A stretch of 64,000 nt of DNA from Dehalococcoidia bacterium (GCA_965262235.1 OZ253504.1:3361684-3425683); one strand, 5' to 3'; numbered from the stretch's first letter, positions 9,703-57,794 are shown. Notes: generated by a model not told the origin, from the letters alone. Numbers and translations: made by a program.

Positions 9703-10968
9703 CTACTCGTCGTTCGCCGCGCTATCGGACGGAGGGTTGAAGCGCCGCGCGTTCGCGCTCAGGATGCTGATCCGGTCGATTGCCTCTTGCGGCGTCGAGA
9801 GGATCGGCGCCTCGAGCGTGATTTGCAGCTGGGGCTGGAAGCCCGCCGGGTCAACGCCGTAATCGGCGAGCAGGTTTCGATAGGCGGCGACCGCGGCGCG
9901 CAGGGCGCTGAGGACCAGCCAACTCTGGTGGTAGGGATTGGTGTTGACGGTGAACAGCAACTTGCCGTCGCGCAGCGCCTCGAGAGCGGCGATGTTGATA
10001 TCGAACGTGGCGAGCACGGCGCTCGACGCTTCTGTATCGATCGCGGCGAGTGCGGCGAGACTGATCCGTGCGTTGAGGGTGATCACGCCGGCAACGGGAG
10101 TCTGGCCTGAGTCAGCGCGCAGCCGTCCCGCGATGGACGCCTGCGTTGCCGCCAGGTCGCTGACGCCGGTCTCGTTGACGGTGAACCGTTCAAGCTGGCC
10201 TGGGTAGCCGCTCTCGAAGCCGTTGCAGCGCTCCTCGAGGCCGATGTTCTCTTCTTCGTGGATGACGCAGAGCACGGTGCCGGTGATGCCGGCGTCGACG
10301 AACCGCTGTGCGGCCCGGCTGCCAAGCCGGTGCTCGTCGACGCTGACGTGGAACAGCGAGCCGACGCGCCTGAAGTCATCGCGGCCCGAGTTGAAGGACG
10401 CCACGACGACGCCGGCCTCCCTGGCTTCGGCGAGCGCGTCGGCGAGTGCGTCGGGCGCGGCGAGGGTGGTGGCGATGGCGCCGGCGCCGGCGGCGACGCA
10501 GTCGCGCACGAGCTGAGCCTGCCCGCTGGGCACGGGGTTGGCCACCACGCGGACGTCAATGCCGAGGCCGTCAACGCTCCAGCGCCTCGACGATGCGGCC
10601 CTGCGGACGGTGTTCCAGAACGCTTCGTCGCCGGGGTGTTCGTGGGTGACGAGGCACCAGAGCTCGTCTTCGGACTCGGCGACGGTCTCGGTGGCTGCCT
10701 GGTCGCTCTCGGTGGGAGCCAACGCGACGGCGCTGCTGCTGTGCCAGCGGCCCGGGGCGGCATCGGCAGGGAGGAAGCGGCTGTCGGGCAGGCTGCGTTC
10801 GCCCCATTCGCCGCCGGCGCTCTGTTGAATCGCGACTTCGACGCGACCGTCGTCGAGGCGTCGGGCCTGGACGCGCAGCTCGTCGTCGCCGCCGGCGGCC
10901 ATTGCCAGGCCCAGCGTGATCGCGGCCACGACGAATCCGGCCACGAACGTCATGGTGGTCTTGAGCAT
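9703..10968 (-). CDS. Membrane-anchored periplasmic-binding-protein-like (type I PBP / sugar-binding-like) substrate-binding protein.
   Basis: N-terminal TM helix followed by two alpha/beta lobes resembling the LacI/RbsB-type PBP fold. There is no adjacent transporter gene. Confidence 0.45.
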   Translation of the reverse strand: MLKTTMTFVAGFVVAAITLGLAMAAGGDDELRVQARRLDDGRVEVAIQQSAGGEWGERSLPDSRFLPADAAPGRWHSSSAVALAPTESDQAATETVAESEDELWCLVTHEHPGDEAFWNTVRRAASSRRWSVDGLGIDVRVVANPVPSGQAQLVRDCVAAGAGAIATTLAAPDALADALAEAREAGVVVASFNSGRDDFRRVGSLFHVSVDEHRLGSRAAQRFVDAGITGTVLCVIHEEENIGLEERCNGFESGYPGQLERFTVNETGVSDLAATQASIAGRLRADSGQTPVAGVITLNARISLAALAAIDTEASSAVLATFDINIAALEALRDGKLLFTVNTNPYHQSWLVLSALRAAVAAYRNLLADYGVDPAGFQPQLQITLEAPILSTPQEAIDRISILSANARRFNPPSDSAANDE

Positions 10969-12376: not shown

Positions 12377-12844
12377 CTACGACGCGGCTTCAGCGAGCGC
12401 CTGGACGTGTTTGAGCGAATCTTCGGCGTGCAGCGCGAAGTCGCGCGGGGCGTCGACGATGTGGCGGACGATGCCTTCGGCGTCGATCACGTAGGTCGTG
12501 CGGGCGGTGATCCCACGCTCTTCATTGAAGATGCCCCAGACCTTGCCGGTGCGGGCGAAGGGGAAGTCGCCGAGCAGCGGGAAGCTGAGGCCGAGCTCGC
12601 GTGCGTAGGCTCCGGCGGCGAAGGGTGAATCGACACTGACGCCCAGGACCTGGGCTCCAGCCGCCTCGAACTCGTCATGGAGTTCCTGGAAGCGGCTCAG
12701 TTCGTTCGTTCAACCACCGGTGAAGGCGAGCACGTACCAGGCGACGACGACGGTCCGGCCGCGGTACTCGCTGAGCTGATGCTCGCGGCGGTCGCCGTCC
12801 ATCAGCGTGAAATCGGGGGCCTGTTGTCCAACTTCCACGGCCAT
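12377..12844 (-). CDS. AhpE/Bcp-like 1-Cys peroxiredoxin with an in-frame TGA (candidate selenocysteine) at the peroxidatic position.
   Basis: I translated the whole frame by hand. It reads MAVEVGQQAPDFTLMDGD...VVVAWYVLAFTGG-[TGA at 12710-12712]-TNELSRFQELHDEFEAAGAQVLGVSVDSPFAAGAYARELGLSFPLLGDFPFARTGKVWGIFNEERGITARTTYVIDAEGIVRHIVDAPRDFALHAEDSLKHVQALAEAAS-TAG (12377). LAFTGG-U-TNEL aligns residue-for-residue with the AhpE motif LAFTGI-C-QGEL. The peroxiredoxin fold continues for 110 codons after the TGA with no frameshift. Confidence 0.65.
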
Positions 12845-13763: not shown

Positions 13764-14828
13764 GTGATCGTGGGCGGCTACGCCGTGATCCCGATCCTGC
13801 TGCGCCCGTTCGTGGGGCGCTGGAGCGATGCAGGCCGGCGGATTCGGCTGATGCGGATCGGCCTGCTCTCCTTCGCGGTTTCGTTCGCGCTGATGATCTT
13901 CACCGAATCGATCTGGGTGTTCTTTGCGCTGCGTTGCGTGCAGGGCATCGGGATGGCCGCCTACCCGACGGCGGCCGGCTCGTTTATCGCGGAGATCGTG
14001 CCGCCGCGCCGGCGCGGCGAGGGGCTGGGCTTCTTCGGGTTGGCGACCAGCGGGTCGCAGATGATCACGCCGCTGGTCGGCGGGCTGGTGGTGGCTCACT
14101 TTGGCGGCTTCGATGCGGTGCTGGTGCTCGGCGTTGCGACGGCTGGTCTGGCGCTCGCGCTGACGGTGCTGCAGCGGGAGCCGACCCACTCGGGCCACCC
14201 GGCGCCGCCGATGAGCCTGCGCGCGCTGGTGCCGCCGGCGGCGGTCTTTCCGATGCTGGTCTTCCTGAGCATCACGCTGACGTTCAGCGCGGCGGCCACC
14301 TTCCTGCCCGCCTTCGAGGACGCCGACCCCAATCGAGACCTCGGAGGCGTGACGGGGTTGGGGCTGTTCTTCGTGTTTGGCGGGGCGGCCGCGATGATCA
14401 CGCGGCCGATTGCGGGGCGGATCTCCGACCGGTTGGGGCGCGTGCCGGTGATCATTCCGGGGCTGATCGCGACGATCGCCGGGCTGGTGGTGCTGACGCA
14501 GGCGCAGGTACCGGAGATGCTCTGGATCGCCGGAGCGCTGACCGGGGTCGGGATGGGCGGCGCTCATACGGGGCTGCTGGCGCTGGCGGTTGACCGCGTG
14601 GCGCCGACTCAGCGCGGCGGCGCGACCGCGACGTTCCAGCTCGCCTGGGATATCGGCGGGTTTGTCGGTGGCGGGCCCGTGTTGGGGCTGGTGGGCGGCG
14701 TGCTCTCGGTCGAGATGGTGTTCTGGGCGGCGGCGGTCGCCGCTGTGGTCGCGTTGGGCGCGTTGCTGGTTGGCCGGGCGATGGGCTGGACGCGCCCGCA
14801 CGCATCGTTCGTGGACGCGAGCACGTAG
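13764..14828 (+). CDS. MFS transporter whose N-terminus is unresolved.
   Basis: MFS motif A GRWSDAGRRIRLMRIG and about 10 TM helices. The same frame stays open back to a TAA at 13428-13430 and encodes TM1-like sequence (YLFTLAGTFSFFACFFYLTTTLP), but contains no ATG/GTG/TTG upstream of 13764. Confidence 0.7.
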   Translation: MIVGGYAVIPILLRPFVGRWSDAGRRIRLMRIGLLSFAVSFALMIFTESIWVFFALRCVQGIGMAAYPTAAGSFIAEIVPPRRRGEGLGFFGLATSGSQMITPLVGGLVVAHFGGFDAVLVLGVATAGLALALTVLQREPTHSGHPAPPMSLRALVPPAAVFPMLVFLSITLTFSAAATFLPAFEDADPNRDLGGVTGLGLFFVFGGAAAMITRPIAGRISDRLGRVPVIIPGLIATIAGLVVLTQAQVPEMLWIAGALTGVGMGGAHTGLLALAVDRVAPTQRGGATATFQLAWDIGGFVGGGPVLGLVGGVLSVEMVFWAAAVAAVVALGALLVGRAMGWTRPHASFVDAST

Positions 14829-21133: not shown

Positions 21134-21979
21134 ATGACAACTGGCGACGGCTGGGCCCGACCTGAGCTGCTGTGCGACACCGACTGGCTCGCGGAGCACA
21201 TTGACGACGATGACGTGGTGGTGCTGGACTGCGATGTGCTGCCCTCGTATCAGCGGCTGCACATCCCCGGATCGATCTGGTCGCTCTCGCGCTACTGGAA
21301 GACCGACCCGAAGGACGATTCGCAGATCTACGGGATGGACGACCCGGCGCAGTTTGCGGCGCTGCTCTCCGGGATGGGGATCACGCCCGACACGCAGGTG
21401 GTCGCCTACGACGCGTCGGGCTGCCTCTACGCGGCGCGGGTGTGGTGGACGTTTGAGCGGTTCGGACACACCAACTTCAGGATTCTCGATGGCGGCCTGG
21501 ACAAGTGGTACGCGGAGGGCCGGCCGCTGGCCAACGACAACCCGCGAGCGGTGCGCAGCGAGTACCCGGCGCCGGCGGCGGCGCGCAGCGACTCGGTCTG
21601 CAGGCTCGACGACATCCCCGCGCTGATCGAGGACGAGAACCACGTCTTCTGGGACGTGCGCTCGGACGGCGAATGGACGGGCGCGAACAAGCGCGGCACG
21701 CAGCGCGGCGGGCGCATCCCGGGGGCGGTGCATCTGGAGTGGCTGCACACGCTGGAGTCGCCGGTGCGGACGCTGAAGTCGCCCGCGGTGCTGCGCGAGA
21801 TGCTCGGCGAGCTGGGGATCACGCCGGACAAGCGCGTGACGACGTATTGACAGGGCGGCATCCGTGCGGCGCACGGATACTTCCTGCTGCGACTGCTCGG
21901 CTGGGACCACGCGGCGAACTATGACGCCTCGTGGCACGAGTACGGCAACGCGCTCGAGCACCCGATGGAGACCGAGTAG
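21134..21979 (+). CDS. Two-domain rhodanese (thiosulfate/3-mercaptopyruvate sulfurtransferase-like) with an in-frame TGA (candidate selenocysteine) at the catalytic-Cys position.
   Basis: Annotated ORF 21134..21850 ends ...KRVTTY-TGA (21848-21850). The same frame continues QGGIRAAHGYFLLRLLGWDHAANYDASWHEYGNALEHPMETE-TAG (21977-21979). TY-U-QGGIRAAH aligns with the rhodanese active-site loop TY-C-R.G.R..H. The tail matches the conserved ...NYDGSWxEWG... C-terminus. A perfect 7-bp hairpin ATCCGTG-cggcg-CACGGAT lies at 21860-21878, 10 nt after the UGA. Confidence 0.65.
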
Positions 21980-22059
21980 GCGGGGCGCTCGGATCGACCC
22001 GGTGCGCGCCTGAGTCGATGGGCTGGGCCGCCGAGGCGAGCGGCGTTCGGAATCCTCTG

Positions 22060-22400
22060 AACAAGTCGGATCCCCTCTCCCCCCGCTTCGCGGGGGGAGA
22101 TGTCACGGAGTGACAGAGGGGGGCAGCCCCAGTTGGCCAGATACAGCCACGCCGGTGAGTCGGGACCGCAGCCCCCCTCTGCTCCCTGCCTGTGCGGGGG
22201 CAGGCTGCGGCATCTCCCCCTCAGAGACCTGCGCGTAAGTCCCACTGCTCCGACCTTCCCTGCCGATGGCGGTGTCACGAAGTGAAGGTGGGGAGCTTCC
22301 GTTATCTGGTGAGGGCGCGCCCGGAGCCCCCCTCTGCCTGTGGCATCTCCCCCCGCGGAGCGGGGGGAGAGGGGAAATGGAGATTACGCGCAGGTCTCCT
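22060..22400. repeat. Cluster of palindromic repeat elements.
   Basis: GGATCCCCTCTCCCCCCGCTTCGCGGGGGGAGATGTCACGGAGTGACAGAGGGGGGCAGCC ... CATCTCCCCCCGCGGAGCGGGGGGAGAGGGG. Same family as at 1950, 35700, 39150 and 50250. Confidence 0.7.
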
Positions 22401-22480
22401 CGGGCGGCGACATTGTGACAGGGATCGGATGCCCCTGACGAGATTGAGCGGTCAGGGGATCCGGCTTGCTCAGAGCTTTG

Positions 22481-23638
22481 CTAGCTGCGCTCGAGCGCGG
22501 CAACGAGCGCGGCTTCGATTTCTTCGATTGGGGCGAAGGCTTCGAAGCGGGCGACCACCTGGCCGTCACCGTTGACGATGAACGTCCATTCGTCGGTGTG
22601 GAGCCCCCACTCTTCGAGCAAGGGGGTCCGCTGGGGCGGCTCGCCGCGGCGCACGTTGAGCGGGTTTTCGTAGAGATCGACGTGGATGTAGCGAACGCCG
22701 GCGGGATACAGCAGGCGCAGCTCGCTGAGCACTTCGACCTGCGGGCCGCAGAACGCGTTGGTGCAGAAGCCGGGGCTGGCGAAGACGACGACGAACGGTT
22801 CGCCGTTCTCAAGCGCCTCGGCGATCGTGAGTTCGTAGAGCATCGCGTCGGGCTCGGCGGCGGTCGAGAGCTCCTCGGCGCCGGCGACATCGCGCAGGGT
22901 GCGGTTGATCGATGCCGGCGGCTGCTCGCCGACGGAGGGCGCGAGCGTGTTCTCGCGCACGGTGATCGCGATTGGGATGTCGATGAAGCCATCGAGGCTC
23001 GGGGTGCGGATGTTGATCACCCAGTCGCCGGCCTGGCCGAACGTCAGCTGCGCGACATGGAAGCCGCGGATGCCGTCGGGGAAGAGCGTGTAGGCGGCGA
23101 GCGCATCGCTGGCCGACTCAGGGCCGGTGGCGACGGGCCAGTAGCTGAGCGCCAACGCGGGGAACTCGACGAGGCCGTCGTCGCTCTCCACCACGACGCT
23201 GACGCGGTTTTGACCAAGGCCGAGGTCGGGCGTTCCAAGTGAGACGGAGAACCCCTCGGGGCTGAGGTAGACGGGGTAGCCGCCGTCGGTCAGCAGCGCC
23301 AGGCGCGGGCTGAGCTCGTCCACGGGGACGGGCTGCAGCGCGTTGACCGTGGAGACTGTCGCGTCGCCGGACTGCTCGGCGGCGGTCTGCGACTGGTCGG
23401 CCTGCGAGTCGTGCTGTTGGGCGGCCTGCTGCGCGGCGGGCTGGTCAGCGTCAGCCGCTTCGGCTGGGGTTTGCTGCTGTGCCTGGTCCTGGGACTGTTG
23501 GGCCTCCGGCGCGGCGGGAGCGGAGGAGGCCGCTTGTTGCGGATCATCGCCGCCGCTGCCGCAGGCGGCGAGCAGCAGGCCCACGACGAGCGCGCCACCG
23601 ATCAGCGCGCCACCAATCGGGAATCGCAGAGACATCAT
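22481..23638 (-). CDS. Thioredoxin-fold lipoprotein (TlpA/redoxin-like) with a Gln-rich linker.
   Basis: Lipobox LLLAACGSGG and a low-complexity AQQ-rich linker. C-terminal ...FVVVFASPGFCTNAFCGPQ (CxxxC in a thioredoxin-like beta-alpha context). Confidence 0.55.
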   Translation of the reverse strand: MMSLRFPIGGALIGGALVVGLLLAACGSGGDDPQQAASSAPAAPEAQQSQDQAQQQTPAEAADADQPAAQQAAQQHDSQADQSQTAAEQSGDATVSTVNALQPVPVDELSPRLALLTDGGYPVYLSPEGFSVSLGTPDLGLGQNRVSVVVESDDGLVEFPALALSYWPVATGPESASDALAAYTLFPDGIRGFHVAQLTFGQAGDWVINIRTPSLDGFIDIPIAITVRENTLAPSVGEQPPASINRTLRDVAGAEELSTAAEPDAMLYELTIAEALENGEPFVVVFASPGFCTNAFCGPQVEVLSELRLLYPAGVRYIHVDLYENPLNVRRGEPPQRTPLLEEWGLHTDEWTFIVNGDGQVVARFEAFAPIEEIEAALVAALERS

Positions 23639-36793: not shown

Positions 36794-38170
36794 ATGGTCC
36801 GCCTCTCCGACCTCCACCCCGAAGAAGCGGAGCATCTGAGGAGCTGGCCGCCGCTTCAGATCGAGCCGGGGGAGTGGATCACGCCCAAGCCGCTGCGCGA
36901 GTCGACGATCGCTCTGATCACCACCGCGGGCCTGCATCGGCGCGATGACGTGCCGTTCGCGTCGGGCGCGGTGGACTATCGGATCATCCCCGGCGACGCT
37001 GACTTCGCGGATGTCATCTCCTCGCACTTGAGTTCCAACTGGGACCGCTCGGCGCTCGCGCAGGATCTGAACGTCGTGCTGCCGATCGAGCGCCTCAGGG
37101 AGTTGGCTGCGGCGGGCGAGATCGGCGGCGTGGCACGCTGGCACTACTCGTTCATGGGCGGGGTCCCGCGCGCCGATCGGCTGGAGCCGTACGCCCGCGA
37201 GGTGGCGGGCCTGCTCAAGCGCGACGGCGTCGACGCCGCCGTGCTCATACCCGTTTGACCGGCCTGCACGCGCGCCGTCGGCGCGCTCGGCCACTACATC
37301 GAGCGTGAGGGCGTGGCCACGACCAGCATCTCGCTGGTCCGCGAGCACAGCGAATACATGAAGCCGCCGCGCGCGCTGTGGGTGCCGTTCTACCTCGGCC
37401 GCCCGTTCGGCGTGCCCGACGACCCCGACTTCCAGCGCGACGTGCTGCGCGCCGCGCTCGACCTGCTACCGACGCTGACCGAGCACGGCATCGTCGACTA
37501 TCCAGTCGAGGCGCCCGACGACTCGTTCTCCCACACGTGGGCCTGCCCGGTCTCGTTCGAGGCGTCGGACGCCGACTCGTTGGGCGCCCGCCTGCGCGGC
37601 GAGGCGCAGCGGCTCGCGCCCTGGTGGCGCGAGACGCACCGGGCTCGCGGACGCACCCTGGTGGGTGCGAGCGCGCCGCTGCCAGACGGACCAGACCGCG
37701 AAGTGACCGTGCCGCAGCACGTCGACACGCTGGCCGCCGCGCTTGTGGACGTCGCGGAGGGCGCGCCGCTCGACACGCCGCCTGTGATCGAGCGGCCGGC
37801 CGGCTCGAACCCCGCCGAAGCGGCAAATGAGCTTGCCTGGTCGCACCCGATGCCCTTCCTGCTGCGTCACCTCGTGCAGGACCTGCGCTGCTTCTATCAG
37901 GAGGCCGCGGCGGGGCAGCCGGGCGCGCAGGCGCCGTCGCATCGCGCGTTGAACGAATGGATCTTTGGCGAGACCGTGCTCGGCGAGGCGATCATCGAGA
38001 TGGGCCGCCGGCTCACCGAGGCCGGCGATCCACGCCTGCGCGCCTTGCGCTTCTGGTCGATCCCCGAAGGCTTCTGGCCCGATGACGACGAGGTTGTCAC
38101 CGCTGCGAGCATGACCGACTCACTCGCGCGCGCCGACGCCGCCAACAAGCTGTTCGCGCCGCGCCAATAG
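36794..38170 (+). CDS. Glycine/betaine/sarcosine/D-proline reductase family 'selenoprotein B' (GrdB-like) homolog with an in-frame TGA (candidate selenocysteine) in a U-x-x-C motif.
   Basis: Track ORFs 36794..37258 and 37313..38170 are in the same frame and separated only by the TGA at 37256-37258. Read-through gives ...DGVDAAVLIPV-U-PACTRAVGALGHYIEREGVATTSISLVREHSEYMKPPRALWVPFYLGRPFG.... The U-P-A-C-T motif resembles the UxxC redox motif of GrdB/PrdB-family proteins. A GC-rich hairpin (GGCC..GCGCGCC-GTC-GGCGCGC..GGCC) lies at 37261-37292. Confidence 0.55.
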
Positions 38171-44732: not shown

Positions 44733-45091
44733 GGGGACGAAAGGGATCGACAGCGGCCGACTGATCTGTGGCTGCGCGCCGAGGTGGCGTTCCTCGCTAA
44801 TCCGCGCCAACCTTTCCTTAACTGGCGAAACCAAGGAATTCGCACTCGCCGCTTAACCGCGGCGACGTCGCCTCCCGACTGCCGCCGAACCGGTGGGAGT
44901 GCGGCGCCATCAGTTTGGCCGCTCGCCGCGGGATGACGGGACCGCAGCGCTAAGACCATTCCGGATCACCTGGTCGTAACGGCTGGCCGACGCGCCGGCG
45001 ACCGGGGAAAACTTAAGCGACGGCTACGCGCGTAGAGGCTGCGGGGAGCGACCGACTGGACGGGGAGTTCGATTCTCCCCCGTCTCCACCA
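44733..45091 (+). ncRNA. ssrA: tmRNA (ssrA).
   Basis: 5' GGGGACGAAAGGGATCGACAGCGG... The 3' tRNA-like end is GGACGGGGAGTTCGATTCTCCCCCGTCTCCACCA, giving T-arm GGGAG/CTCCC and acceptor 5'-GGGGACG pairing 3'-CGTCTCC, then ACCA. The internal tag ORF ends ...GETKEFALAA-TAA (44854-44856), the canonical ...ALAA degradation tag. Confidence 0.7.
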
Positions 45092-48691: not shown

Positions 48692-50173
48692 ATGAGCCAG
48701 CCACCCGAGGTCAGCCCGGTCGCGCCACGCCGCCGCGTCTCAATCTCCCCACGAGATCTCTGGGAGCAGCTGGTTGATCGCTCACTCTCGAGTCCGCTCG
48801 GATTCGTCACCGGCGTCGCCTTCGGCATCTTCGCCGCCACGATCGGCTTCTTGATCGCCACGCTGATCATGCCCGTCTGGCTCTGGCGCCGGCGCAAGAT
48901 CATGGGCGTGGTCGGCGCGCTGATCCTGCTCGTCTCGGTCCTCGTCGCGATGCTGGCCCCGCTGATCCAGCCGACCGATGTCTCGAACTTCCCCAATCCG
49001 GCCTATCTCAAGGGCTCGCTCGCCGCCGAGGACCGCTTCAATCCGCCGTCGGTTGATCACGTCTTCGGCACCGATCGCAAGGGCCAGGATGTTGTCACGC
49101 GGATCATCTACGGCTCCGAGGTGACCGTGCTGGTCGGCCTCGGGACGGTCATTCTGACTGCGATCATGGCGACCACGCTGGGCATCATCTCCGGCTTCTT
49201 CGCCGGTGAATCGATCGCGATCACAGTTGCCGTGCCGCGCCGTCTGGCGCTGCTCAACGCGCCCTCGGCGTCGCTCGCGGCGCGCGCGCTGGGCCTGCCG
49301 CTGAGCCTGCTCTTCATCGCCGCGTCCGCCGGGTTCGGGCTGATCGTGCGTGCGATCGATCTCGTGATCCTCGCGATCGCGGAGCTCGTGGCGCTGCCGA
49401 TGCAGATCGCGGCGTTCTTCACGCGCCTGGCCGGCCGGCGGACATCGCATCTGGACGAGACCGCGAGCGGGCTGCTGCAGACGGCCGGGGCGCCGCTGGC
49501 GCGCTCGCTGGAGCTGCGCACCGGCGCGCTGCCGCGGATCAAGATCCCCGTGCCCAACATCGATATCGCGCTGCAGCGCGTGATCGATGTCTGGATCGCG
49601 TTCCCGGCGATCTTCCTGATCCTCGCGATCGTGGCGATCCTCGGCTCCGGCGGCGACGGCCTGTTCGGGCTCGGGCGCGGGCCCAACTGGGGCCCGCAGG
49701 CGACCAACTCGTCGGAGTGGTTGTGGGAGGTCTTCCCGCGCACCACCGTGGTCATCGTCACGCTCGCCGTGGTGCTGGCGGCCGGCAACACACGCGTGAT
49801 TCGCGGCGCCGTGCTGGCGATCAAGGCCGAGCAGTACGTCGACGCGGCGCGCTCACTGGGCGCGCCGAACACCCGGATCATGGCCGCCCACATCCTGCCC
49901 AACGTGGTCCCGGTCGTGATCATCCTGGCCTCGCTCAACCTCGGCATCGCGGTCCTGGCCGAGGCGGCGATCTCCTTCCTCGGCTACGGCGTGGCCCCGC
50001 CCTACCCGACCTGGGGGCGCGACCTCGGCGGCCTGACGCTGGTCGACGCCCCGCAGGCCTGGTGGATCGCCGTCTTCCCCGGCTTCGCGATCACGATCGC
50101 CGTGTTCGGCTTCAACATGATGGGCGACGCCCTGCGCGACATCCTCGACCCGCGCCTACGCGGCACCCAATAG
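48692..50173 (+). CDS. ABC transporter permease (DppC/OppC-like) with a long internal insertion.
   Basis: C-terminal ...YVDAARSLGAPNTRIMAAHILPNVVPVVII... EAA region. 493 aa versus ~300 aa typical. Confidence 0.8.
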   Translation: MSQPPEVSPVAPRRRVSISPRDLWEQLVDRSLSSPLGFVTGVAFGIFAATIGFLIATLIMPVWLWRRRKIMGVVGALILLVSVLVAMLAPLIQPTDVSNFPNPAYLKGSLAAEDRFNPPSVDHVFGTDRKGQDVVTRIIYGSEVTVLVGLGTVILTAIMATTLGIISGFFAGESIAITVAVPRRLALLNAPSASLAARALGLPLSLLFIAASAGFGLIVRAIDLVILAIAELVALPMQIAAFFTRLAGRRTSHLDETASGLLQTAGAPLARSLELRTGALPRIKIPVPNIDIALQRVIDVWIAFPAIFLILAIVAILGSGGDGLFGLGRGPNWGPQATNSSEWLWEVFPRTTVVIVTLAVVLAAGNTRVIRGAVLAIKAEQYVDAARSLGAPNTRIMAAHILPNVVPVVIILASLNLGIAVLAEAAISFLGYGVAPPYPTWGRDLGGLTLVDAPQAWWIAVFPGFAITIAVFGFNMMGDALRDILDPRLRGTQ

Positions 50174-50229
50174 CGCCGCCACGCCACGCCGCAGGCCGCG
50201 CGATCCCCCGCCCGGGCGGTCGCGGCTGA

Positions 50230-50500
50230 CTGCCGCCGCGCGCAATGCTCAGGATCACTCTCCCCCCGCTCGGCGGGGGGAGATGCCGCAGGCAGAGGGG
50301 GGCTCCCGCGCGTGACGCCGGCTGACCGCGACCCACTCCCCCTCTGCCTTCGGCATCTCCCCCTCAGGGGGCGATATTGGGAGGGGATTGGATCTCGCGG
50401 GCCGCGTTGAGTCGCAGGCGCGGGGAGCCCCCCTCTGTCACTCCGTGACATCTCCCCCCGCTTTGCGGGGGGAGAGTGGATTGCACAGGGCGGCGGAGGG
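50230..50500. repeat. Cluster of palindromic repeat elements.
   Basis: CACTCTCCCCCCGCTCGGCGGGGGGAGATGCCGCAGGCAGAGGGGGGCTCCC ... CTGTCACTCCGTGACATCTCCCCCCGCTTTGCGGGGGGAGAGTGG. Confidence 0.75.
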
Positions 50501-50526
50501 GCGGTCCGACTCGTTCAGCGCTGCGG

Positions 50527-52569
50527 CTAGCTGCGGCCGAACTCGCGGAGCAGATCCGCGGCGGCGATCTCGACCAGCGTGGGGCGTCCGTGCGGGCACG
50601 AATGCGGGTCCGCGCAGGCCTCCAGCTGGCGCAGCAGCGCGACCATCGCCGGCGCGTCGAGTACGACCCCGCGGCGCACCGAGCCGTGACAGGCGACCGA
50701 GGCCGCGACCCGATCGAAGCGCTGCTCGGTGGCGCGCCGCGTGTCGCCGCCCAGCTCGGCCAGCACGTCGCGCAGCCAGCGCTCGGCGCCGGCGGCCGTC
50801 AGCTCGCCGCTCGGCGCCCCGTGCGCCTCGCTGAGCCCCGGCCCGGCCGGGACCGCGCGCAGCCGCAGCGCGCGCTCGCCCCACTCGTCCAGCTCGAAGC
50901 CCAGAGCGGCCAGCTGCTCGGCCGCCTGCGACCAGACCGCCGACTCGGCCGCGTCGAGCGCCACGACCGGCGGATCGAGCAGCGGCTGGCGGGCGCCTTG
51001 GTCCGCTGCGCCCGGGCGCCCGGCCACGGAGCGCGCCGCGAGCAGCCGTTCGTAGACGACCCGCTCGTGCGCCGCGTGCTGGTCGACCAGCACCAGCCCC
51101 TGCTCGCCCTCGGCGATCACGAACGTGCGGTGCAGCTGGCCAACCATCCGCAGCGGCGCCAGTCCGCGCCGCCGCGAGCGCGAAACCGAGCCCGGCAGCG
51201 GCTCAGCCGCGCCGGTCGGCGGGGAACCGGTCGTCGGTCCGGATGCCGCGCCGGGCAGCACGGTTCGCACCTCGTCTGGCATTACGTCTGTCATCGCGTC
51301 CGGCGCTGTGGGCGGGGACGCCGCTGCGGCGCGCGGCAGCGCGCGGCGCGGATCCGCGGCCGCCGCGGCGGGCCGCGCGCCGGCGCTCTCGATCCGACCC
51401 TGCAGCGCGCCCGCGTCCGGTGCGATCGGGCCATCCGCGATCCCGCTGTCCGCCTGCGGCGCCCACTCGAGGTCCCGGTCGGGCCGGCGCAGCCGCAGCG
51501 TCGAGCTCGAGGCCTGTCCGGCCAGGGCGGCGCGCAGCGCGCGCTGCAGCAGACTGAACGCGCGCGCCGGCTCGCGCAGCTGCACCTCGGCCTTGGTCGG
51601 ATGCACGTTGACGTCGACCTGGTCGGGCGGCACGCTCAGCCGCGCCACGACCAGCGGGAAGCGGCCGGCCGGCAGCCAGCCGCGATAGGCCTCCTGCAGC
51701 GCCCAGGCCAGACTGCGGTCGCGCACCGGGCGTCCGTTGACGAACAGCCGCAGTCCCTCGCGTCCGCGCCGGCCGTCGCGCGGCGCCCCGGCCAGACCCT
51801 CCACGCGCAGCTCCGCGTCCTCGCCCGCCCACCAGATCGCCCGCTCGGCCGGCTCGGCGCCGAAGACCGACGCCCAGGCCTCGCGCAGCGCTGACTCAGC
51901 GCCGCCGCCGTCGCCGCCGTTCTCGCCCGCTGCGGGGTCGTGACGCAGCGTGACGCGGCCCTCCAGCTCGAGCCGCAGGCCCACGTCGGGACGCGCCAGC
52001 ACGGCGTCGGCCGCGACCCGCGTCAGCGCCGCCCGCTCCGAGCGCGGGCCGGGCAGAAACGAGCGGCGCGCCGGCTGCTGCGCGAACAGCTCCCAGAGCT
52101 CGACGCTGGTGCCGGGGCCGCGCGCGCAGCGCTCCAGGCCCTGTAGCCGTCCACCCGCGTAGCTGATCTGCGCCCCGACCGGCTGCTCGGCCGTCCGCGA
52201 GCTGGCCAGCAGCCTTCCCGCCGCGGCCGCGATCGCGGCCAGCGCCTCGCCGCGGAAGCCGTAGCCGTCGAGCGCCCAGAGCTGTTCGGCGCGCGACAGC
52301 TTGGAGGTCGCGTGGCGCCGGAAGGCCAGCTCCAGCTCCGCCGCGCGGATCCCCGCGCCGTCGTCGCGCACCGCCAAGCGTTCCAGCCCGGCCCCTTCGA
52401 GCTCGATCGTGATCCGCCGCGCGCCGCCGTCGAGCGCGTTCTCGAGCAGCTCCTTGAGCGCCGCGGCGGGCCGCTCGACGACCTCGCCGGCGGCGATCTG
52501 GCCCGCCACCGCGGCCGACAGCTCACGGATCCGGGCCGGCGCGTCGGCTGGCTGTTGCAGCGTGGTCAT
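50527..52569 (-). CDS. mutL: DNA mismatch repair protein MutL.
   Basis: GHKL ATPase motifs ...AAGEVVERPAAALKELLENALDGGARRITIEL...DDGAGI.... The start is taken at the ATG giving MTTLQQ. Confidence 0.85.
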   Translation of the reverse strand: MTTLQQPADAPARIRELSAAVAGQIAAGEVVERPAAALKELLENALDGGARRITIELEGAGLERLAVRDDGAGIRAAELELAFRRHATSKLSRAEQLWALDGYGFRGEALAAIAAAAGRLLASSRTAEQPVGAQISYAGGRLQGLERCARGPGTSVELWELFAQQPARRSFLPGPRSERAALTRVAADAVLARPDVGLRLELEGRVTLRHDPAAGENGGDGGGAESALREAWASVFGAEPAERAIWWAGEDAELRVEGLAGAPRDGRRGREGLRLFVNGRPVRDRSLAWALQEAYRGWLPAGRFPLVVARLSVPPDQVDVNVHPTKAEVQLREPARAFSLLQRALRAALAGQASSSTLRLRRPDRDLEWAPQADSGIADGPIAPDAGALQGRIESAGARPAAAAADPRRALPRAAAASPPTAPDAMTDVMPDEVRTVLPGAASGPTTGSPPTGAAEPLPGSVSRSRRRGLAPLRMVGQLHRTFVIAEGEQGLVLVDQHAAHERVVYERLLAARSVAGRPGAADQGARQPLLDPPVVALDAAESAVWSQAAEQLAALGFELDEWGERALRLRAVPAGPGLSEAHGAPSGELTAAGAERWLRDVLAELGGDTRRATEQRFDRVAASVACHGSVRRGVVLDAPAMVALLRQLEACADPHSCPHGRPTLVEIAAADLLREFGRS

Positions 52570-52573
52570 CGGC

Positions 52574-55500
52574 TCAGCCGCCCGCCGCCAGCCAGCTGAG
52601 CTCCTGCTGCGCCGCCGCCGGCGCGCCCGGCTGCATGCTCGGCTGCCCAATCTGTTGCACAATCGGCTGCATGGCGGGTCGCGGCGCGTCGCCGGCCAGG
52701 CGCGCCTGTTCACGCAGCGCGTAGAGCGCCGAGATCGCTTCCAGCGGGGTCAGCCCGTCGACATCGAGCGCGGCCAGCTCGTCCAGCAGCGCGGCGCCCG
52801 CCGCCCAGTCCTGATCCGCCGCTGCGCGCGCCGGCGGCGGGGCCAGCTCGAACAACGCCTCGGCGCCCGCCGCGCCCGACTCCAGCGCGGCCAGCAGCTC
52901 GGCGGCGCGCTCCAGCACGGGCCGCGGCAGACCGGCGATCGCGGCGACCTGCACGCCCCACGAGCGGTCCGCCGCGCCCGCCGCGACGCGGTGCAAAAAC
53001 CTGAGCCCGCCGCGGCCGTCCTCCTCGGCCGTGACCGCGGCGTTGGCGACCCGTTCGAGCGAGCCGGCCAGCGCGGTCAGCTCCTGGAAGTGCGTCGCGA
53101 ACAGCGTGCGCGGGCCGCTGCGGCCGGCCACGAGCCGCTCGGCGACCGCCTGCGCGATCGCCAGGCCGTCCCAGGTGCTGGTCCCGCGCCCGACCTCGTC
53201 GAGCAGCACCAACGAACGCTCGCCGGCGCCGTGCAGCAGCCGCGCCGTCTCCAGCATCTCGACCAGGAAGGTCGAGCGGCCCGCGGCGAGGTCGTCCTGC
53301 GCGCCGACCCGCGCGAAGATGCGGTCGACCAGACCGATCCGCGCCGCCGCCGCGGGCACGAAGCAGCCGGCCTGGGCGAGGATCACGATCAGCGCCGCCT
53401 GGCGCAGGTAGGTGCTCTTGCCCGACATGTTCGGCCCGGTCAGCAGCAGCAGCTGCGGCGCGCCGGCGCCGCCCGCGTCGAGCTCGAGGTCGTTGGCCAC
53501 GAACGCGGCCGGATCGCCGCCGGCCTCGACGATCGGATGCCGGCCGGCCTCGATCCGCAGGCCCAGCCCGGCGTCCAGCCGCGGCCGCCGCCAGTCGCGC
53601 TCGGCCGCCAGCTCGGCCAGCGCGGCCGCCGCGTCAAGCCGCGCCAGCGCCCCGGCGCAGCCCCGAATCGCTGCAGCCTCGGCGGACAGCGCAAGGGCCA
53701 GGCGCTCCACGCAGCCGCGCTCGGCCGCGCTCAGCTCGCGCTCGGCGTCGGCCAGTTCGTCGGCCAGGGCGCGCAGCCGCGGCTCCGAGAAGCGCTCAGA
53801 GGCGCGCAGACTCTGGCGCCGCTCCCAGCCGGCCGGCACGGCGTCGGGCTGGCCGGGCTGGGCCAGCTTGCCCAGCTGACCGCGCGTGACCTCGATGTAG
53901 TAGCCCCAGCTGCGGTGATAGCCCAGCTTCAGCGCGGCCAGCCCGCTCTCGGCGCGCAGCGTCGTCTCCAGCACGGCCAGCCGCGCGCGGCCGGCCGTGC
54001 GCCGCGCCGCGGCGGCGTCAACCGCCGCGTCGACCCCGGCGCGCAGCACGCCGCCGCCGTAGGCCGCTTCGGGCTGCTCGAGCAGCGCCGCGGCCAGCCT
54101 GTGCGCCGCCGCCGGCGCCGGCCCCAGCCGCTGCGCCAGCGCCGCCAGGGCCTCCACTGGCCCCGAGGCCGCCACATTCCCCGAGGCAGAATGTCCGCCT
54201 CCTTCGCCCGCCTCGCCCGCTGCGCCTACATCGGCGCGGATCCGCTCGGCCAGCGCTGCGGCCGCGAGCAGACCGCGGGCCAGCGCCGCCAGCTCGGCGG
54301 GCCGCGCCAGACCGGCGGCCAGCCGCGCCAGCAGCCGCTCGAGGTCGGGCGCCTCGCGCGCGGCCGCGCGGACCGCGCGGCGCAGCGCAGCGCGTTCGCG
54401 CAGCGCCGCGATCCGGTCCAGCCGGGTCTCGATCCGTCGCTGATCGAGCAGCGGGGCCAGCAGCGCGGCGCGCAGCCAGCGCCGGCCCGCCGCGCTGCCG
54501 CAGCGGTCGAGCGTCTGCAGCAGCGTGCGCGGCGCGTCCGACCCGCGGCCGGCGCCGCCCGGCGCGTCGTCGACGATCGCCAGCGCGCGCTGCGTCGCCG
54601 CGTCCCACTGCAGCCGCGCGCCCGGCTCCAGCAGCCGCGGCGGCGCCAGATGCGCCAGCCGGTCCACCGTCCGACCCTCGCCCGCCGCTGGACCGCCTGC
54701 TTCATCGTCTGTCCCACCGTCTACTGCGCCCTCCGCGTCCGCGGGCAGCGCCGCCGCGGCCAGCTCCAACACGCCGCCCAGCGCCGCCAGCGCGGCCGGG
54801 CGCTCCTCCAGACCGAGCGCCGCGGCCGGTTCGCGGCCCAGCTCGCCGCCCCAGCGCGCCGCCAGCGCGCGGCGCGCCTGCGCGGCGCCGAAGCCGCGCG
54901 CCTGCAGCCCGGCCTGCCCGTCGCGCCGATCCTGCCCCGTGCGCCGCAGTGGCAGCCCATCCAGCTCGGCGCCGACCAGCTTCCAGCGCTGCTCGCCGAG
55001 GCCGGGACCGAGCAGCAGTTCGCGCACGCCCAGCCGGGCCAGCTCGGCGGCCAGCGGCGCGGCCAGCTCGGGCAGCGCCGCGGCGCGCAGCTCCAGCGCG
55101 TGACAGGCGCCGGTGCTGAGGTCCAGCGCGGCCAGACCGAGCAGCCACGCGCCGCCGCCCGGGGCGCCGCGGCCGGGGGCGCCGCCGCCGCGGGCGGGCT
55201 CGCGCTGCAGCGTCAACGCCGCGCAGGCCGAGGGCTCGCCGGCCTCCAGCAGCGCCGGCTCCAGCGCGGTGCCCGGTGAGAGCACGCGCACCACGCCGCG
55301 CCGCACCAGCCCGCGCGCGGCGCGCGGATCCTCGAGCTGCTCGCAGATCGCGACCCGGTGACCGCGCGCGACCAGCCGCGCCAGGTGCGATTCGACGTGC
55401 GCGACCGGCACCCCGGCCAAGGGCGCGCGCAGGCCGCCGCCCATCGGCTTCGAGGTCAGCGTGATGCCCAGCTCGGCGGCCACGAGCTTGGCGTCGTCAT

Positions 55501-55606
55501 CGAACGTCTCGTAGAAATCGCCCAGCCGAAAAAACAGGATCGCGTCGGGCTGACGCGCCTTCTGCTCCAGATACTGGCGCCGCATCGGGGTGGTCACGCC
55601 GCCCAC
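52574..55606 (-). CDS. mutS: DNA mismatch repair protein MutS (1010 aa, with low-complexity insertions).
   Basis: N-terminal ...PMRRQYLEQKARQPDAILFFRLGDFYETFDDDA and C-terminal Walker A ...LLLLTGPNMSGKSTYLRQ...LLDEVGRGTST.... Confidence 0.85.
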   Translation of the reverse strand: MGGVTTPMRRQYLEQKARQPDAILFFRLGDFYETFDDDAKLVAAELGITLTSKPMGGGLRAPLAGVPVAHVESHLARLVARGHRVAICEQLEDPRAARGLVRRGVVRVLSPGTALEPALLEAGEPSACAALTLQREPARGGGAPGRGAPGGGAWLLGLAALDLSTGACHALELRAAALPELAAPLAAELARLGVRELLLGPGLGEQRWKLVGAELDGLPLRRTGQDRRDGQAGLQARGFGAAQARRALAARWGGELGREPAAALGLEERPAALAALGGVLELAAAALPADAEGAVDGGTDDEAGGPAAGEGRTVDRLAHLAPPRLLEPGARLQWDAATQRALAIVDDAPGGAGRGSDAPRTLLQTLDRCGSAAGRRWLRAALLAPLLDQRRIETRLDRIAALRERAALRRAVRAAAREAPDLERLLARLAAGLARPAELAALARGLLAAAALAERIRADVGAAGEAGEGGGHSASGNVAASGPVEALAALAQRLGPAPAAAHRLAAALLEQPEAAYGGGVLRAGVDAAVDAAAARRTAGRARLAVLETTLRAESGLAALKLGYHRSWGYYIEVTRGQLGKLAQPGQPDAVPAGWERRQSLRASERFSEPRLRALADELADAERELSAAERGCVERLALALSAEAAAIRGCAGALARLDAAAALAELAAERDWRRPRLDAGLGLRIEAGRHPIVEAGGDPAAFVANDLELDAGGAGAPQLLLLTGPNMSGKSTYLRQAALIVILAQAGCFVPAAAARIGLVDRIFARVGAQDDLAAGRSTFLVEMLETARLLHGAGERSLVLLDEVGRGTSTWDGLAIAQAVAERLVAGRSGPRTLFATHFQELTALAGSLERVANAAVTAEEDGRGGLRFLHRVAAGAADRSWGVQVAAIAGLPRPVLERAAELLAALESGAAGAEALFELAPPPARAAADQDWAAGAALLDELAALDVDGLTPLEAISALYALREQARLAGDAPRPAMQPIVQQIGQPSMQPGAPAAAQQELSWLAAGG

Positions 55607-55625
55607 CTCTCCAACATCCGCTCCG

Positions 55626-55643
55626 TAGCCTACACGGTACCGT
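55626..55643. promoter_or_regulatory. Perfect 18-bp palindrome immediately upstream of mutS; candidate operator.
   Basis: CTACACGGTACCGTGTAG at 55626-55643, 20 bp upstream of the mutS start on the opposite coordinate side. Function unknown. Confidence 0.3.
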
Positions 55644-55871
55644 GTAGCGCAACGCTCCGCCCGTCGTCAGGCGCACAGACAGGTTATCAATTGACCCAAC
55701 CGGCTTCCGGGTCCCGCGCCGCTCCGTTCCGTCGAGCCGCGCGCTCCGATCCGCCCAGCGCCGCCGGTCGCGGGCAGGCCGCGGATGTGCGACGACCCGG
55801 CCCTGAAGTCGGCGGGCGCGAATCCGGTGGAGCGCTGCTCGGAAAGGACTGTCAGACGCGCAGCGGTCCGG

Positions 55872-57794
55872 CTAGGCGTCGACCGGGGTCAGCAGCGCGA
55901 GGAAGCGGTCTTCGACGCGCACCGCGTCGGGCGCCAGCTCGCGGCAGACGTCACAGCGGATGCAGGCCGAATCGTCGATCCGCCAGCCGCTCGGCCGCTC
56001 CGCCGGATCGTCATCGTCGTCGGCCGGCTGCGCGCGCGGCACGATCGCGTTGGTCGGGCAGAGCTCAGCCGCTTCGGCCAGCTCCGGCGCCTCGGGATCG
56101 GTCAGCACGTAGCGAATCAGCCCCGGCGCGACCTTCGCGGGATCGCGCTTGTGGTCGATCTGGGTGTCCAGCTCGTCGCGGAAGTAGTTGACCAGACCGC
56201 GCACCGCGTACGGCGTGAACTGGCCGTGCAGACAGTTGGAGTTCTGCAGCGTGCGATCCAGCACGCCGATCCGTTCGATGTCCTCGCGGCGTCCGCCGCC
56301 CTCCGTGATCCGCTGCAGCAGCTCGACCAGCCGCTGCGATCCGCCGTGACAGGTCGTGCAGCGGCCGCATGACTCGTCCTCGCAGAACTCCGAGAAGTAG
56401 AGCGTCAGGTCGACCGCCGAGGCGCGCTCGTCGAACAGGATCAAGCCGCCCGAGCCGAGCAGCACGCCGCGCTCGGTGAAGGGCGGACGCTCCAGCAGCA
56501 GGCCCAGGTCGGAGGCCGGCAGCAGACCGCCCAGCGGCCCGCCGGGCTGGATGCCCTTGGCCGTGTGGCCGGCCTCGGGGCCGCCGCCGGCGTCGAGCAG
56601 CAGCTGGTCCATGCGCAGGCCGAACGGCACCTCGAGGATGCCGGGCCGGCGCAGCGAACCGGTGATGCTGAACATCTTGGTGCCCGGGTCCGACTCCGTG
56701 CCGAACTCGCGGTACCAGGCGGAGCCGTGCTCGACGATCAGCGGCACGTTGGCGTAGGTCTCGGTGTTATTGACGTTCGAGGGCATGTCGAAGACGCCGC
56801 GCTGGGCGGGGAAGGGCGGGCGAATCTTGGGCATCCCGCGCAGCCCCTCGACCGAGGCGATCAGCCCGGTCTCCTCGCCGCACACGTAGGAGCCGGCCCC
56901 GCGCGTGATCTCCAGCTCGAAGGCGAGGTCGCTGCCCAACACCGCGTCACCGAGCAGCCCCAGCGCGCGCGCCTGGCTGAGCGCCAGCTCCATCCGCTCG
57001 ATCGCCAGCGGGTATTCGTCGCGGATGTAGATGAAGCCGCGCGCGGCGCCGGTCGCGCGGCCGGCGATCACCATGCCTTCGACGACCAGATGCGGGTCGG
57101 ATTCCATCAGCACGCGGTTGACGAACGCGCCGGGGTCGCCCTCGTCGGCGTTGCAGACCAGATACTTGGTCGGACCCGGCGCGCCCAGCAGGAACTTCCA
57201 CTTGCGGCCCGCCGGAAAGCCGCCGCCGCCGCGTCCGCCCACGCCCGCCGCCTCGACCAGGTCGCAGATCTCGATCGGCTCGAGCGTCAACGCGCGGTCC
57301 AGCGCCGCGTAGGCGCCGTCCGCGATCGCCTCGCTGATCCGCTCCGGATCGATCACGCCCATCCGCCGCATCAGGCGGCGCTCTTGCAGCGCCCAGAACG
57401 GACCGTCGGCGAGCGGCGCCGCGCCGTTGACCCGACCGCTGCGGCTGCCGATCAGCCAGCCGGCCGCCGCCTCGACCGGATCGTCCGCCAGCGCGGCCGC
57501 CAGCCACTGCGCCGCGTCGGCCGGCTCGAGCGGTCCGTAGACCAGCGCCGCGCCGCCGCGCTCGACTTCGACCACCGGCTCCAGCCAGGACATCCCCAGC
57601 GTGCCGACGCGGACCAGATCGACATCGTGTCCGGCGGCGGCGATCGCCGCCTCCAGCGCCTCCCAGAGCAGATCGGCGCCGGCCGCGATCGAGGAGGTGC
57701 TGAGGTCAACCCGCAGCAGCGGGCGCTCCGGCGCACGCCGCGGCGCCGCCTCCAGCTCGGCCGCCTCGCGCAGCGCCTCGTATGCAGCGCTCAT
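55872..57794 (-). CDS. NuoF-like NAD(H)-binding flavoprotein subunit (HoxF/FdsB-type) with C-terminal 2x[4Fe-4S] ferredoxin domains.
   Basis: NADH/FMN motifs GGRGGGGFPAGRKWKF...CNADEGDPGAF, 4Fe-4S ESCGRCTTCHGG, and C-terminal CPTNAI...CIRCDVC clusters. Confidence 0.8.
   Translation of the reverse strand: MSAAYEALREAAELEAAPRRAPERPLLRVDLSTSSIAAGADLLWEALEAAIAAAGHDVDLVRVGTLGMSWLEPVVEVERGGAALVYGPLEPADAAQWLAAALADDPVEAAAGWLIGSRSGRVNGAAPLADGPFWALQERRLMRRMGVIDPERISEAIADGAYAALDRALTLEPIEICDLVEAAGVGGRGGGGFPAGRKWKFLLGAPGPTKYLVCNADEGDPGAFVNRVLMESDPHLVVEGMVIAGRATGAARGFIYIRDEYPLAIERMELALSQARALGLLGDAVLGSDLAFELEITRGAGSYVCGEETGLIASVEGLRGMPKIRPPFPAQRGVFDMPSNVNNTETYANVPLIVEHGSAWYREFGTESDPGTKMFSITGSLRRPGILEVPFGLRMDQLLLDAGGGPEAGHTAKGIQPGGPLGGLLPASDLGLLLERPPFTERGVLLGSGGLILFDERASAVDLTLYFSEFCEDESCGRCTTCHGGSQRLVELLQRITEGGGRREDIERIGVLDRTLQNSNCLHGQFTPYAVRGLVNYFRDELDTQIDHKRDPAKVAPGLIRYVLTDPEAPELAEAAELCPTNAIVPRAQPADDDDDPAERPSGWRIDDSACIRCDVCRELAPDAVRVEDRFLALLTPVDA

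Follow-up and report, generated by a model that had tools for sequence, protein, structure and literature searches.

Two-domain rhodaneses built around a Cys nucleophile have been solved from several organisms, and include the Thermus thermophilus enzyme (PDB ID 1uar), the mycobacterial CysA/SseA proteins (3hwi, 3aax and 3hzu), RhdA from Azotobacter (1e0c) and bovine rhodanese (1rhd). These proteins share a plan in which an inactive N-terminal domain is followed by a catalytic C-terminal domain, where the nucleophile is succeeded by a six-residue cradle carrying loops such as RIGER, RKGVT or QTHHR. A selenocysteine (Sec) counterpart was predicted in 2005, when a Sec-containing 'rhodanese-related sulfurtransferase' (COG2897) was reported from the Sargasso Sea on the basis of 3 sequences, with a SECIS element drawn for AACY01016424 (PMC1088965). 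Sec rhodaneses were encountered again in the GOS metagenome, with 8 Sec sequences in cd01449 and 1 in COG2897 (PMC2398784), and most recently a rhodanese-like form 4, with a UxxG motif and the PF00581 domain, has been listed with MCY3690685.1 as its representative (PMC13188914; the UxxG motif also appears in PMC9312934). The class to which our sequence belongs is likewise known for selenoproteins: BSepDB, which scored a species only where two or more of SelA, SelB and SelD were present, places two Dehalococcoidia MAGs among the top ten selenoprotein-rich bacteria (46-49 genes), one of them bearing a UUID-style isolate name like those of loci analysed here (PMC13326102). In the literature on Sec rhodaneses we found neither the size of a Chloroflexota clade, nor an invariant mini-SECIS with a putative His-Gly imprint on the protein, nor Sec-to-Cys reversions or the annotation truncation of these genes. 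To the best of our knowledge, a Sec-rhodanese has yet to be characterised experimentally.

Here we describe a gene within a 64,000-nucleotide stretch of DNA from a Dehalococcoidia bacterium (GCA_965262235.1 OZ253504.1:3361684-3425683; the whole stretch is hereafter called the window) that is, with high probability, a genuine selenoprotein gene encoding a two-domain rhodanese-type sulfurtransferase with a catalytic Sec. In common with the catalogued Sec rhodaneses (COG2897/cd01449) it has the PF00581 domain, Sec at the catalytic Cys position, a UxxG motif (here U-Q-G-G) and a hairpin with a G-containing loop directly downstream, and its Cys homologues are likewise far more numerous. We infer from the match in description to the AACY01016424 and MCY3690685.1 entries that it is a member of this catalogued subfamily, and MCY3918907.1, a member of the present rhodanese family from a Chloroflexota sponge MAG, falls in the same accession series as MCY3690685.1, making subfamily identity likely. 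The gene is accordingly a further instance of the catalogued Sec-rhodanese family in a lineage previously recognised as rich in Sec. A first-pass annotation of the window, made from the sequence without database searches, had implied greater novelty than the published catalogues allow (PMC1088965, PMC2398784, PMC13188914), and because both the family and the Sec-rich lineage were already in print, current understanding is left unchanged.

A UGA codon at the catalytic position of a two-domain rhodanese

The features of the reading frame and its product are as follows.

21134..21979, + strand: full predicted selenoprotein ORF, 281 residues (238 codons, Sec, 42 codons) followed by TAG; from translation, Pfam and PDB alignment
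21179..21514, + strand: N-terminal rhodanese domain, residues ~16-127, best Pfam stretch
21848..21850, + strand: in-frame UGA, residue 239, at the catalytic Cys position; from PDB alignment and homologue codons
21848..21868, + strand: active-site loop U-Q-G-G-I-R-A (CxxGxR cradle with predicted Sec; UxxG motif)
21851..21976, + strand: 42 post-UGA codons, end of the catalytic domain (…NYDASWHEYGN…)
21977..21979, + strand: true stop, TAG

The frame opens with an ATG at 21134, and its upstream part ends in ...PDKRVTTY before meeting the TGA at 21848-21850. The 42 in-frame codons past this point encode QGGIRAAHGYFLLRLLGWDHAANYDASWHEYGNALEHPMETE, up to the TAG at 21977-21979. The first-pass annotation had counted these 42 same-frame codons, with which coordinates and translation agree, and had placed the TGA exactly at the active-site Cys, a claim borne out by alignment to proteins of known structure. 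When compared with PDB sequences by phmmer, residues 6-279 of the read-through product align end to end with the solved rhodaneses 1uar, 8k55 and 3hwi, and the TGA column coincides with the catalytic Cys of all three. Matches span E-values from 4e-44 to 1e-22, with 1uar first (4e-44), followed by 8k55, 3hwi, 3aax, 3hzu, 1e0c and bovine 1rhd. In this alignment U239-QGGIR-A is set against C-RIAER-S and C-RIGER-S of the solved enzymes, the nucleophile thus opening the six-residue loop of the C-terminal domain; where the Cys enzymes have a Cys nucleophile and the loops named above, the present protein would have Sec and QGGIR. The Q, G, I, R and A of this active-site loop are invariant among 55 Sec forms.

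Pfam finds PF00581 twice in the read-through product (E 2.6e-32; 111.8 bits against a cut-off of 22.2), and by Pfam and PDB alignment together the 281-residue product contains two tandem rhodanese-homology domains, of which the N-terminal one is presumably non-catalytic, going by the architecture of other two-domain rhodaneses. Against the NCBIfam equivalog for 3-mercaptopyruvate sulfurtransferase the product scores 104.6 bits, far below the cut-off of 250; we describe the protein as a predicted two-domain rhodanese-type sulfurtransferase.

Conservation of the TGA codon and of the frame beyond it

A genome scan that took one genome per species returned 80 loci. TGA stands at codon 239 in the window and in 54 other distinct Dehalococcoidia/Chloroflexota genome sequences at identities from 94% down to ~41%, and this set of 55 takes in a SAR202 MAG, sponge-associated MAGs and many closed chromosomes. 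TGC occupies codon 239 in 20 of the 80 scan loci (eight from Chloroflexota, the remainder mostly from Acidobacteriota), and the TGC forms in total amount to 22 homologues at the same column, nine of which are from Chloroflexota. The 40-50 codons after the TGA are kept in frame in all TGA sequences, and likewise in the Cys forms. Relatives thus carry either TGA with a conserved downstream frame or TGC, and none ends with a different C-terminus.

The same picture emerges at the protein level and from metagenomes. A search of 5.8 billion proteins yielded ~45 protein clusters, of 100% to 52% identity, called as 233-243 aa and ending ...TTY, and full-length ...TTY-C-QGGIRAA forms were interleaved with these shortened clusters. 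Metagenome stretches in which the 17-nt block described below follows a TGN codon have TGA in 119 cases and TGC in 1 among the matches listed (at least 120), and encode 108 distinct peptides; judged by their contig series, they point to both marine and soil samples.

Substitution patterns on the two sides of the UGA were compared as pN/pS, which is 0.47 after the codon and 0.42 upstream, at a downstream pS of ~0.55 where synonymous change is saturated. Invariant residues past the UGA carry varying third positions. As pN/pS downstream matches that upstream, the post-UGA stretch is therefore translated. Gene callers and public records tell a different story in annotating a 'rhodanese-like domain-containing protein' of 234-242 aa, as they would if a pseudogene, a sequencing error or a real truncation had left a protein of 238 residues with no catalytic loop, and a decaying remnant downstream of it. 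However, the same TGA recurs in 55 distinct genome sequences and 119 listed metagenome stretches, down to ~41% identity, purifying selection acts as strongly on the 42 downstream codons, whose frame is undisrupted, as on those upstream, and an invariant 17-nt block would not survive in a decaying remnant. We give this explanation practically no credence, and regard a pseudogene or sequencing error as excluded by the conservation of the TGA, the in-frame selection downstream and the invariant block.

A variant genetic code, in which TGA would be a sense codon (Trp or Gly) unrelated to selenium, would explain the in-frame TGAs themselves and nothing further. TGA is in fact the commonest ordinary stop in the window, ending 17 of the 38 other confident genes, and the genetic code is therefore standard; moreover, the in-frame TGAs in real window genes are found only at Cys-equivalent redox positions. 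Reassignment of the codon is excluded by this stop usage, and its chances are in our estimation close to nil. The reading of the UGA as Sec is taken up again below, starting from the RNA element that follows it.

An invariant SECIS-type hairpin downstream of the UGA

The RNA element consists of the following parts.

21860..21876, + strand: invariant 17-nt SECIS-type block AUCCGUGCGGCGCACGG, also encoding I-R-A-A-H-G
21862..21867, + strand: 5' arm of the conserved stem, CCGUGC, first base 11 nt past the UGA
21868..21870, + strand: apical loop GGC; with its closing pair C-GGC-G, fits the bSECIS pattern N1-G-[G|U]-N-N2
21871..21876, + strand: 3' arm of the conserved stem, GCACGG, encoding His-Gly

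The first-pass annotation had singled out a 'textbook' hairpin with a perfect 7-bp stem and a 5-nt loop, AUCCGUG-CGGCG-CACGGAU at 21860-21878. The hairpin is present in this form, but RNAfold adds a C-G pair to give 8 bp and a GGC triloop (-11 to -12.5 kcal/mol), and only the inner 6 bp (21862-21867 with 21871-21876) and the GGC loop make up the conserved core, the outer two pairs of the 7-bp stem forming in 22/44 and 35/44 distinct sequences. The distance given for the start of the stem, 10 nt after the UGA, has to be corrected: the 7-bp stem starts after 9 nt and the conserved stem after 11 nt. The hairpin fits the bacterial model, is invariant and is linked to the TGA; the single-sequence fold is unremarkable for a genome of 69% GC, its z-score varying between -0.9 and -2.3 with the choice of stretch. 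The significance of the hairpin derives from comparison across genomes, and not from any single fold.

In this comparison the block AUCCGUGCGGCGCACGG is identical in 55 distinct Sec forms, except for one paired double change in locus L060, where C-G is replaced by A-U; this is the sole compensatory change, and it also turns Gly into Val. The invariance covers the four- and two-fold degenerate third positions of CGU-GCG-GCG-CAC, so that third-position entropy is 0.00 bits at codons +5 to +8 versus 1.0-1.9 in equally conserved flanking codons, and pS is 0.09 inside the block versus 0.5-0.6 elsewhere. Constraint on the block at the RNA level is very strong and covariation is thin; with covariation amounting to a single event and the rest invariant, it is therefore conservation of sequence that is demonstrated rather than conservation of structure.

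The minimal SECIS element of E. coli fdhF has a reported spacing of 11 nt, equal to the spacer here. As in elements of the fdhF type, the hairpin in the window lies inside the coding region just past the UGA and has a short GC-rich stem with a small G-G loop. It differs from them in being very small (a 6-bp conserved stem and a triloop), in having no bulged U, in sitting at the lower limit of spacing, and in being invariant in sequence, and not only in structure, across a deep clade. Its spacing and energy are nevertheless within the limits of the bacterial model, and the earlier assertion of bacterial SECIS-like spacing and form stands: the consensus model of Zhang and Gladyshev, in the summary given by PMC13188914, sets four constraints, and the element agrees with each of them, having a loop of GGC (or C-GGC-G), a stem of 6-8 bp, a spacing of 16-17 nt and an MFE of -8.0 to -12.5 kcal/mol. 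No Rfam family matches the rhodanese locus, the whole window giving a tmRNA only.

Linkage of the hairpin to TGA and switching between Sec and Cys

The core stem is fully paired, at six positions out of six, in 57/57 TGA forms versus 1/22 TGC forms. The one TGC form with an intact core, L085 (gene 281-1126), is a near-identical recent variant of the TGA form L039 (L039:3597), with which it shares every base of the 9 nt preceding and the 63 nt following the codon, and it keeps its hairpin intact despite the TGC. The pair is either a Sec/Cys switch that happened very recently or a polymorphism within a population. Protein cluster 2 contains both 234-aa (truncated) and 281-aa members.

Among the Chloroflexota Cys forms, I-R-A-A is encoded by varied codons. 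The His-Gly that follows it in the Sec forms is replaced in most Cys forms, including 7/9 from Chloroflexota, by Gln in place of His and then mostly by Ala. The closest Cys orthologue that we found, at 61% identity, is that of L086 (ena:ERZ25068966 contig, gene 10001-10837), in which the hairpin is lost; its neighbourhood is partly syntenic with that in the window (ECH, ThiS, DUF3090, MFS and FTHFS), and no match to the Sec-peroxiredoxin described below was found within the L086 locus. This lineage may be shedding selenoproteins.

In a rough neighbour-joining tree, Cys forms are placed outside the Sec clade and are also nested inside it at at least 4 places. Because the SECIS is identical everywhere, and on the strength of this tree, the sequences suggest a single origin of Sec, basal to a Chloroflexota clade, followed by several reversions to Cys. 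The family offers a clean natural series, in which the nucleophile is Sec or Cys and the SECIS is present or absent, and which could help to find out what advantage selenium gives a sulfurtransferase.

Further selenoprotein candidates and the decoding of Sec

Two other genes of the window have an in-frame TGA at a redox position.

12377-12844, - strand: AhpC/TSA (BCP-type) peroxiredoxin, candidate selenoprotein; TGA 12710-12712, FTGG-U-TNEL, TxxU
36794-38170, + strand: GrdB/PrdB-family candidate selenoprotein; TGA 37256-37258, PV-U-PAC-T, UxxC

In the peroxiredoxin gene the TGA stands at the peroxidatic Cys position; another 20 fetched loci retain it, and L070 has a Cys homologue that reads AFTRGCT. 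Beyond this TGA lies a long hairpin (z -3.05), whose inner stem, aligned by eye, has some mismatches across species. The GrdB/PrdB-like protein matches Pfam GRDB and falls under the NCBIfam PrdB cut-off; nearly all database entries of its homologues are C-terminal fragments, and the Cys forms in clusters P0178 and P0229 read PV-C-PxC-T. Its hairpin, GCGCGCC-GUC-GGCGCGC at 37270-37286, lies 11 nt past the UGA, matching the rhodanese hairpin both in this distance and in its type of loop. A further in-frame TGA at 14096-14098 (- strand) was rejected, as its translation is of low complexity and runs antisense to what is likely an MFS transporter gene. The remaining flagged TGAs, at 620, 953, 6541, 6610 and elsewhere, are probably either ordinary stops separating neighbours that share a frame or part of non-coding frames.

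Genes for Sec decoding were sought in the window and in 204 fetched loci. ARAGORN detected no tRNA-Sec in either, and tblastn with the E. coli SelA, SelB and SelD proteins returned only weak GTPase-domain matches, in a search that covered 64 kb of a ~3.43-Mb genome and so says nothing about the genome as a whole. That the organism decodes Sec has good, if indirect, support in the two further window genes with in-frame TGAs and in the class-level literature (PMC13326102).

We considered whether the UGA might be passed by Sec-independent read-through, with a near-cognate tRNA (Cys or Trp) decoding UGA-C, the hairpin serving as a general stimulator and the enzyme carrying Cys or Trp. A UGA followed by C is a weak termination context. 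The UGA-C context is invariant here, and together with the lack of Sec machinery in the 64-kb window and the 204 loci this speaks for such read-through. On the other hand, the hairpin satisfies all four constraints of a SelB-type SECIS, including the G-containing loop and the spacing, TGA occupies a redox Cys position in two more window genes, both members of classical selenoprotein families, and Dehalococcoidia are documented as having the Sec pathway and large selenoproteomes (PMC13326102). An enzyme with Trp in place of its catalytic Cys would be dead. Insertion of Cys would be better served by TGC, which should then spread, yet TGA has been retained in 55 distinct genome sequences. Given the fit to the SECIS model and the other selenoprotein genes, decoding of this kind is unlikely, and we rate its chances as very slim.

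Decoding of the UGA as Sec, which the first-pass annotation had put forward as the only way in which the enzyme could function, is by comparison well upheld: a Sec/Cys pair occupies the catalytic column, the conserved downstream frame is translated, an invariant RNA element is tied to the TGA, and the window holds two further candidate selenoprotein genes.

A proposed mechanism

The likeliest mechanism is insertion of Sec at UGA-239 by a SelB-dependent route under the direction of the hairpin; here we infer dependence on SelB, incorporation of selenium, the nature of the donor and acceptor substrates, and the chemistry. During translation, the hairpin CCGUGC-GGC-GCACGG within AUCCGUGCGGCGCACGG would fold 11 nt downstream of UGA-239 and, as in characterised bacteria, could be bound by SelB carrying Sec-tRNA(Sec). 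The UGA would then be decoded as Sec, and translation could run on through the final 42 residues to complete the catalytic domain. Catalysis would presumably proceed by double displacement as in a Cys rhodanese, with a selenolate in the U-QGGIR-A cradle replacing the thiolate nucleophile. This selenolate might take sulfane sulfur (or selenium) from a donor such as thiosulfate or 3-mercaptopyruvate, and the resulting Se-S intermediate, formed instead of a persulfide, would be handed to a thiophilic acceptor.

Although speculative, it is tempting to combine these observations into a reading that we consider improbable as a whole, namely that the enzyme is not simply a 'better' sulfurtransferase and might act as a dedicated selenium/selenosulfide relay in these Chloroflexota, so unusually rich in selenoproteins, for example by handing Se(0), bound in an Se-Se or Se-S adduct, to selenophosphate synthetase, and that the SECIS forces His-Gly upon the protein after the active-site loop, Cys revertants drifting to Gln-Ala once the constraint is lifted. 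Were such a relay to exist, the L039/L085 pair and the at least 4 independent reversions would constitute a natural experiment on when Sec repays its cost.

Consequences for annotation

The public records HJN92446.1, PZC42108.1 and MCY3918907.1 all end at the Sec codon and carry the names of ordinary rhodanese or sulfurtransferase proteins. Truncation at the UGA likewise leaves at least 45 protein clusters related to this gene at 234-243 residues, without their catalytic residue. Clusters P0020 and P0057 include stretches of unrelated-looking sequence and apparently stem from frameshifted contigs. Gene callers also split the peroxiredoxin and GrdB/PrdB-like genes into fragments. Because the rhodanese is shortened and the other two genes are split in annotation, gene content, and with it sulfur and redox metabolism, is under-called in marine, sponge-associated and soil Dehalococcoidia.

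Gene neighbourhood and other observations in the window

The gene neighbourhood of the rhodanese is not conserved. An upstream S41 peptidase is common to the near-identical relatives L001 and L002, and is not found beside the syntenic Cys orthologue of L086. Immediately past the rhodanese gene, the intergenic stretch 22037-22493 is dense in inverted repeats, with arms of 36-40 nt at 22037-22106 and 22340-22493, and holds two copies of the palindrome UCUCCCCCCGC-NNNN-GCGGGGGGAGA; these repeats could be a MITE/REP-like element or stacked terminators.

A tmRNA gene is located at 44733-45091 (+ strand; Rfam 126.8 bits). The tag peptide that ARAGORN gives for it, AATSPPDCRRTGGSAAPSVWPLAAG, is unlike the GESKEFALAA-type tags of L007, L008, L016 and L018, and the tag frame has probably been mispredicted in the window. 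Finally, the stretch 50000-56000 has a G+C content of 77-78% versus ~68% elsewhere, and very long ORFs overlap there on both strands, at 52301-55279 (+ strand, 992 aa) and 52574-55606 (- strand, 1010 aa).
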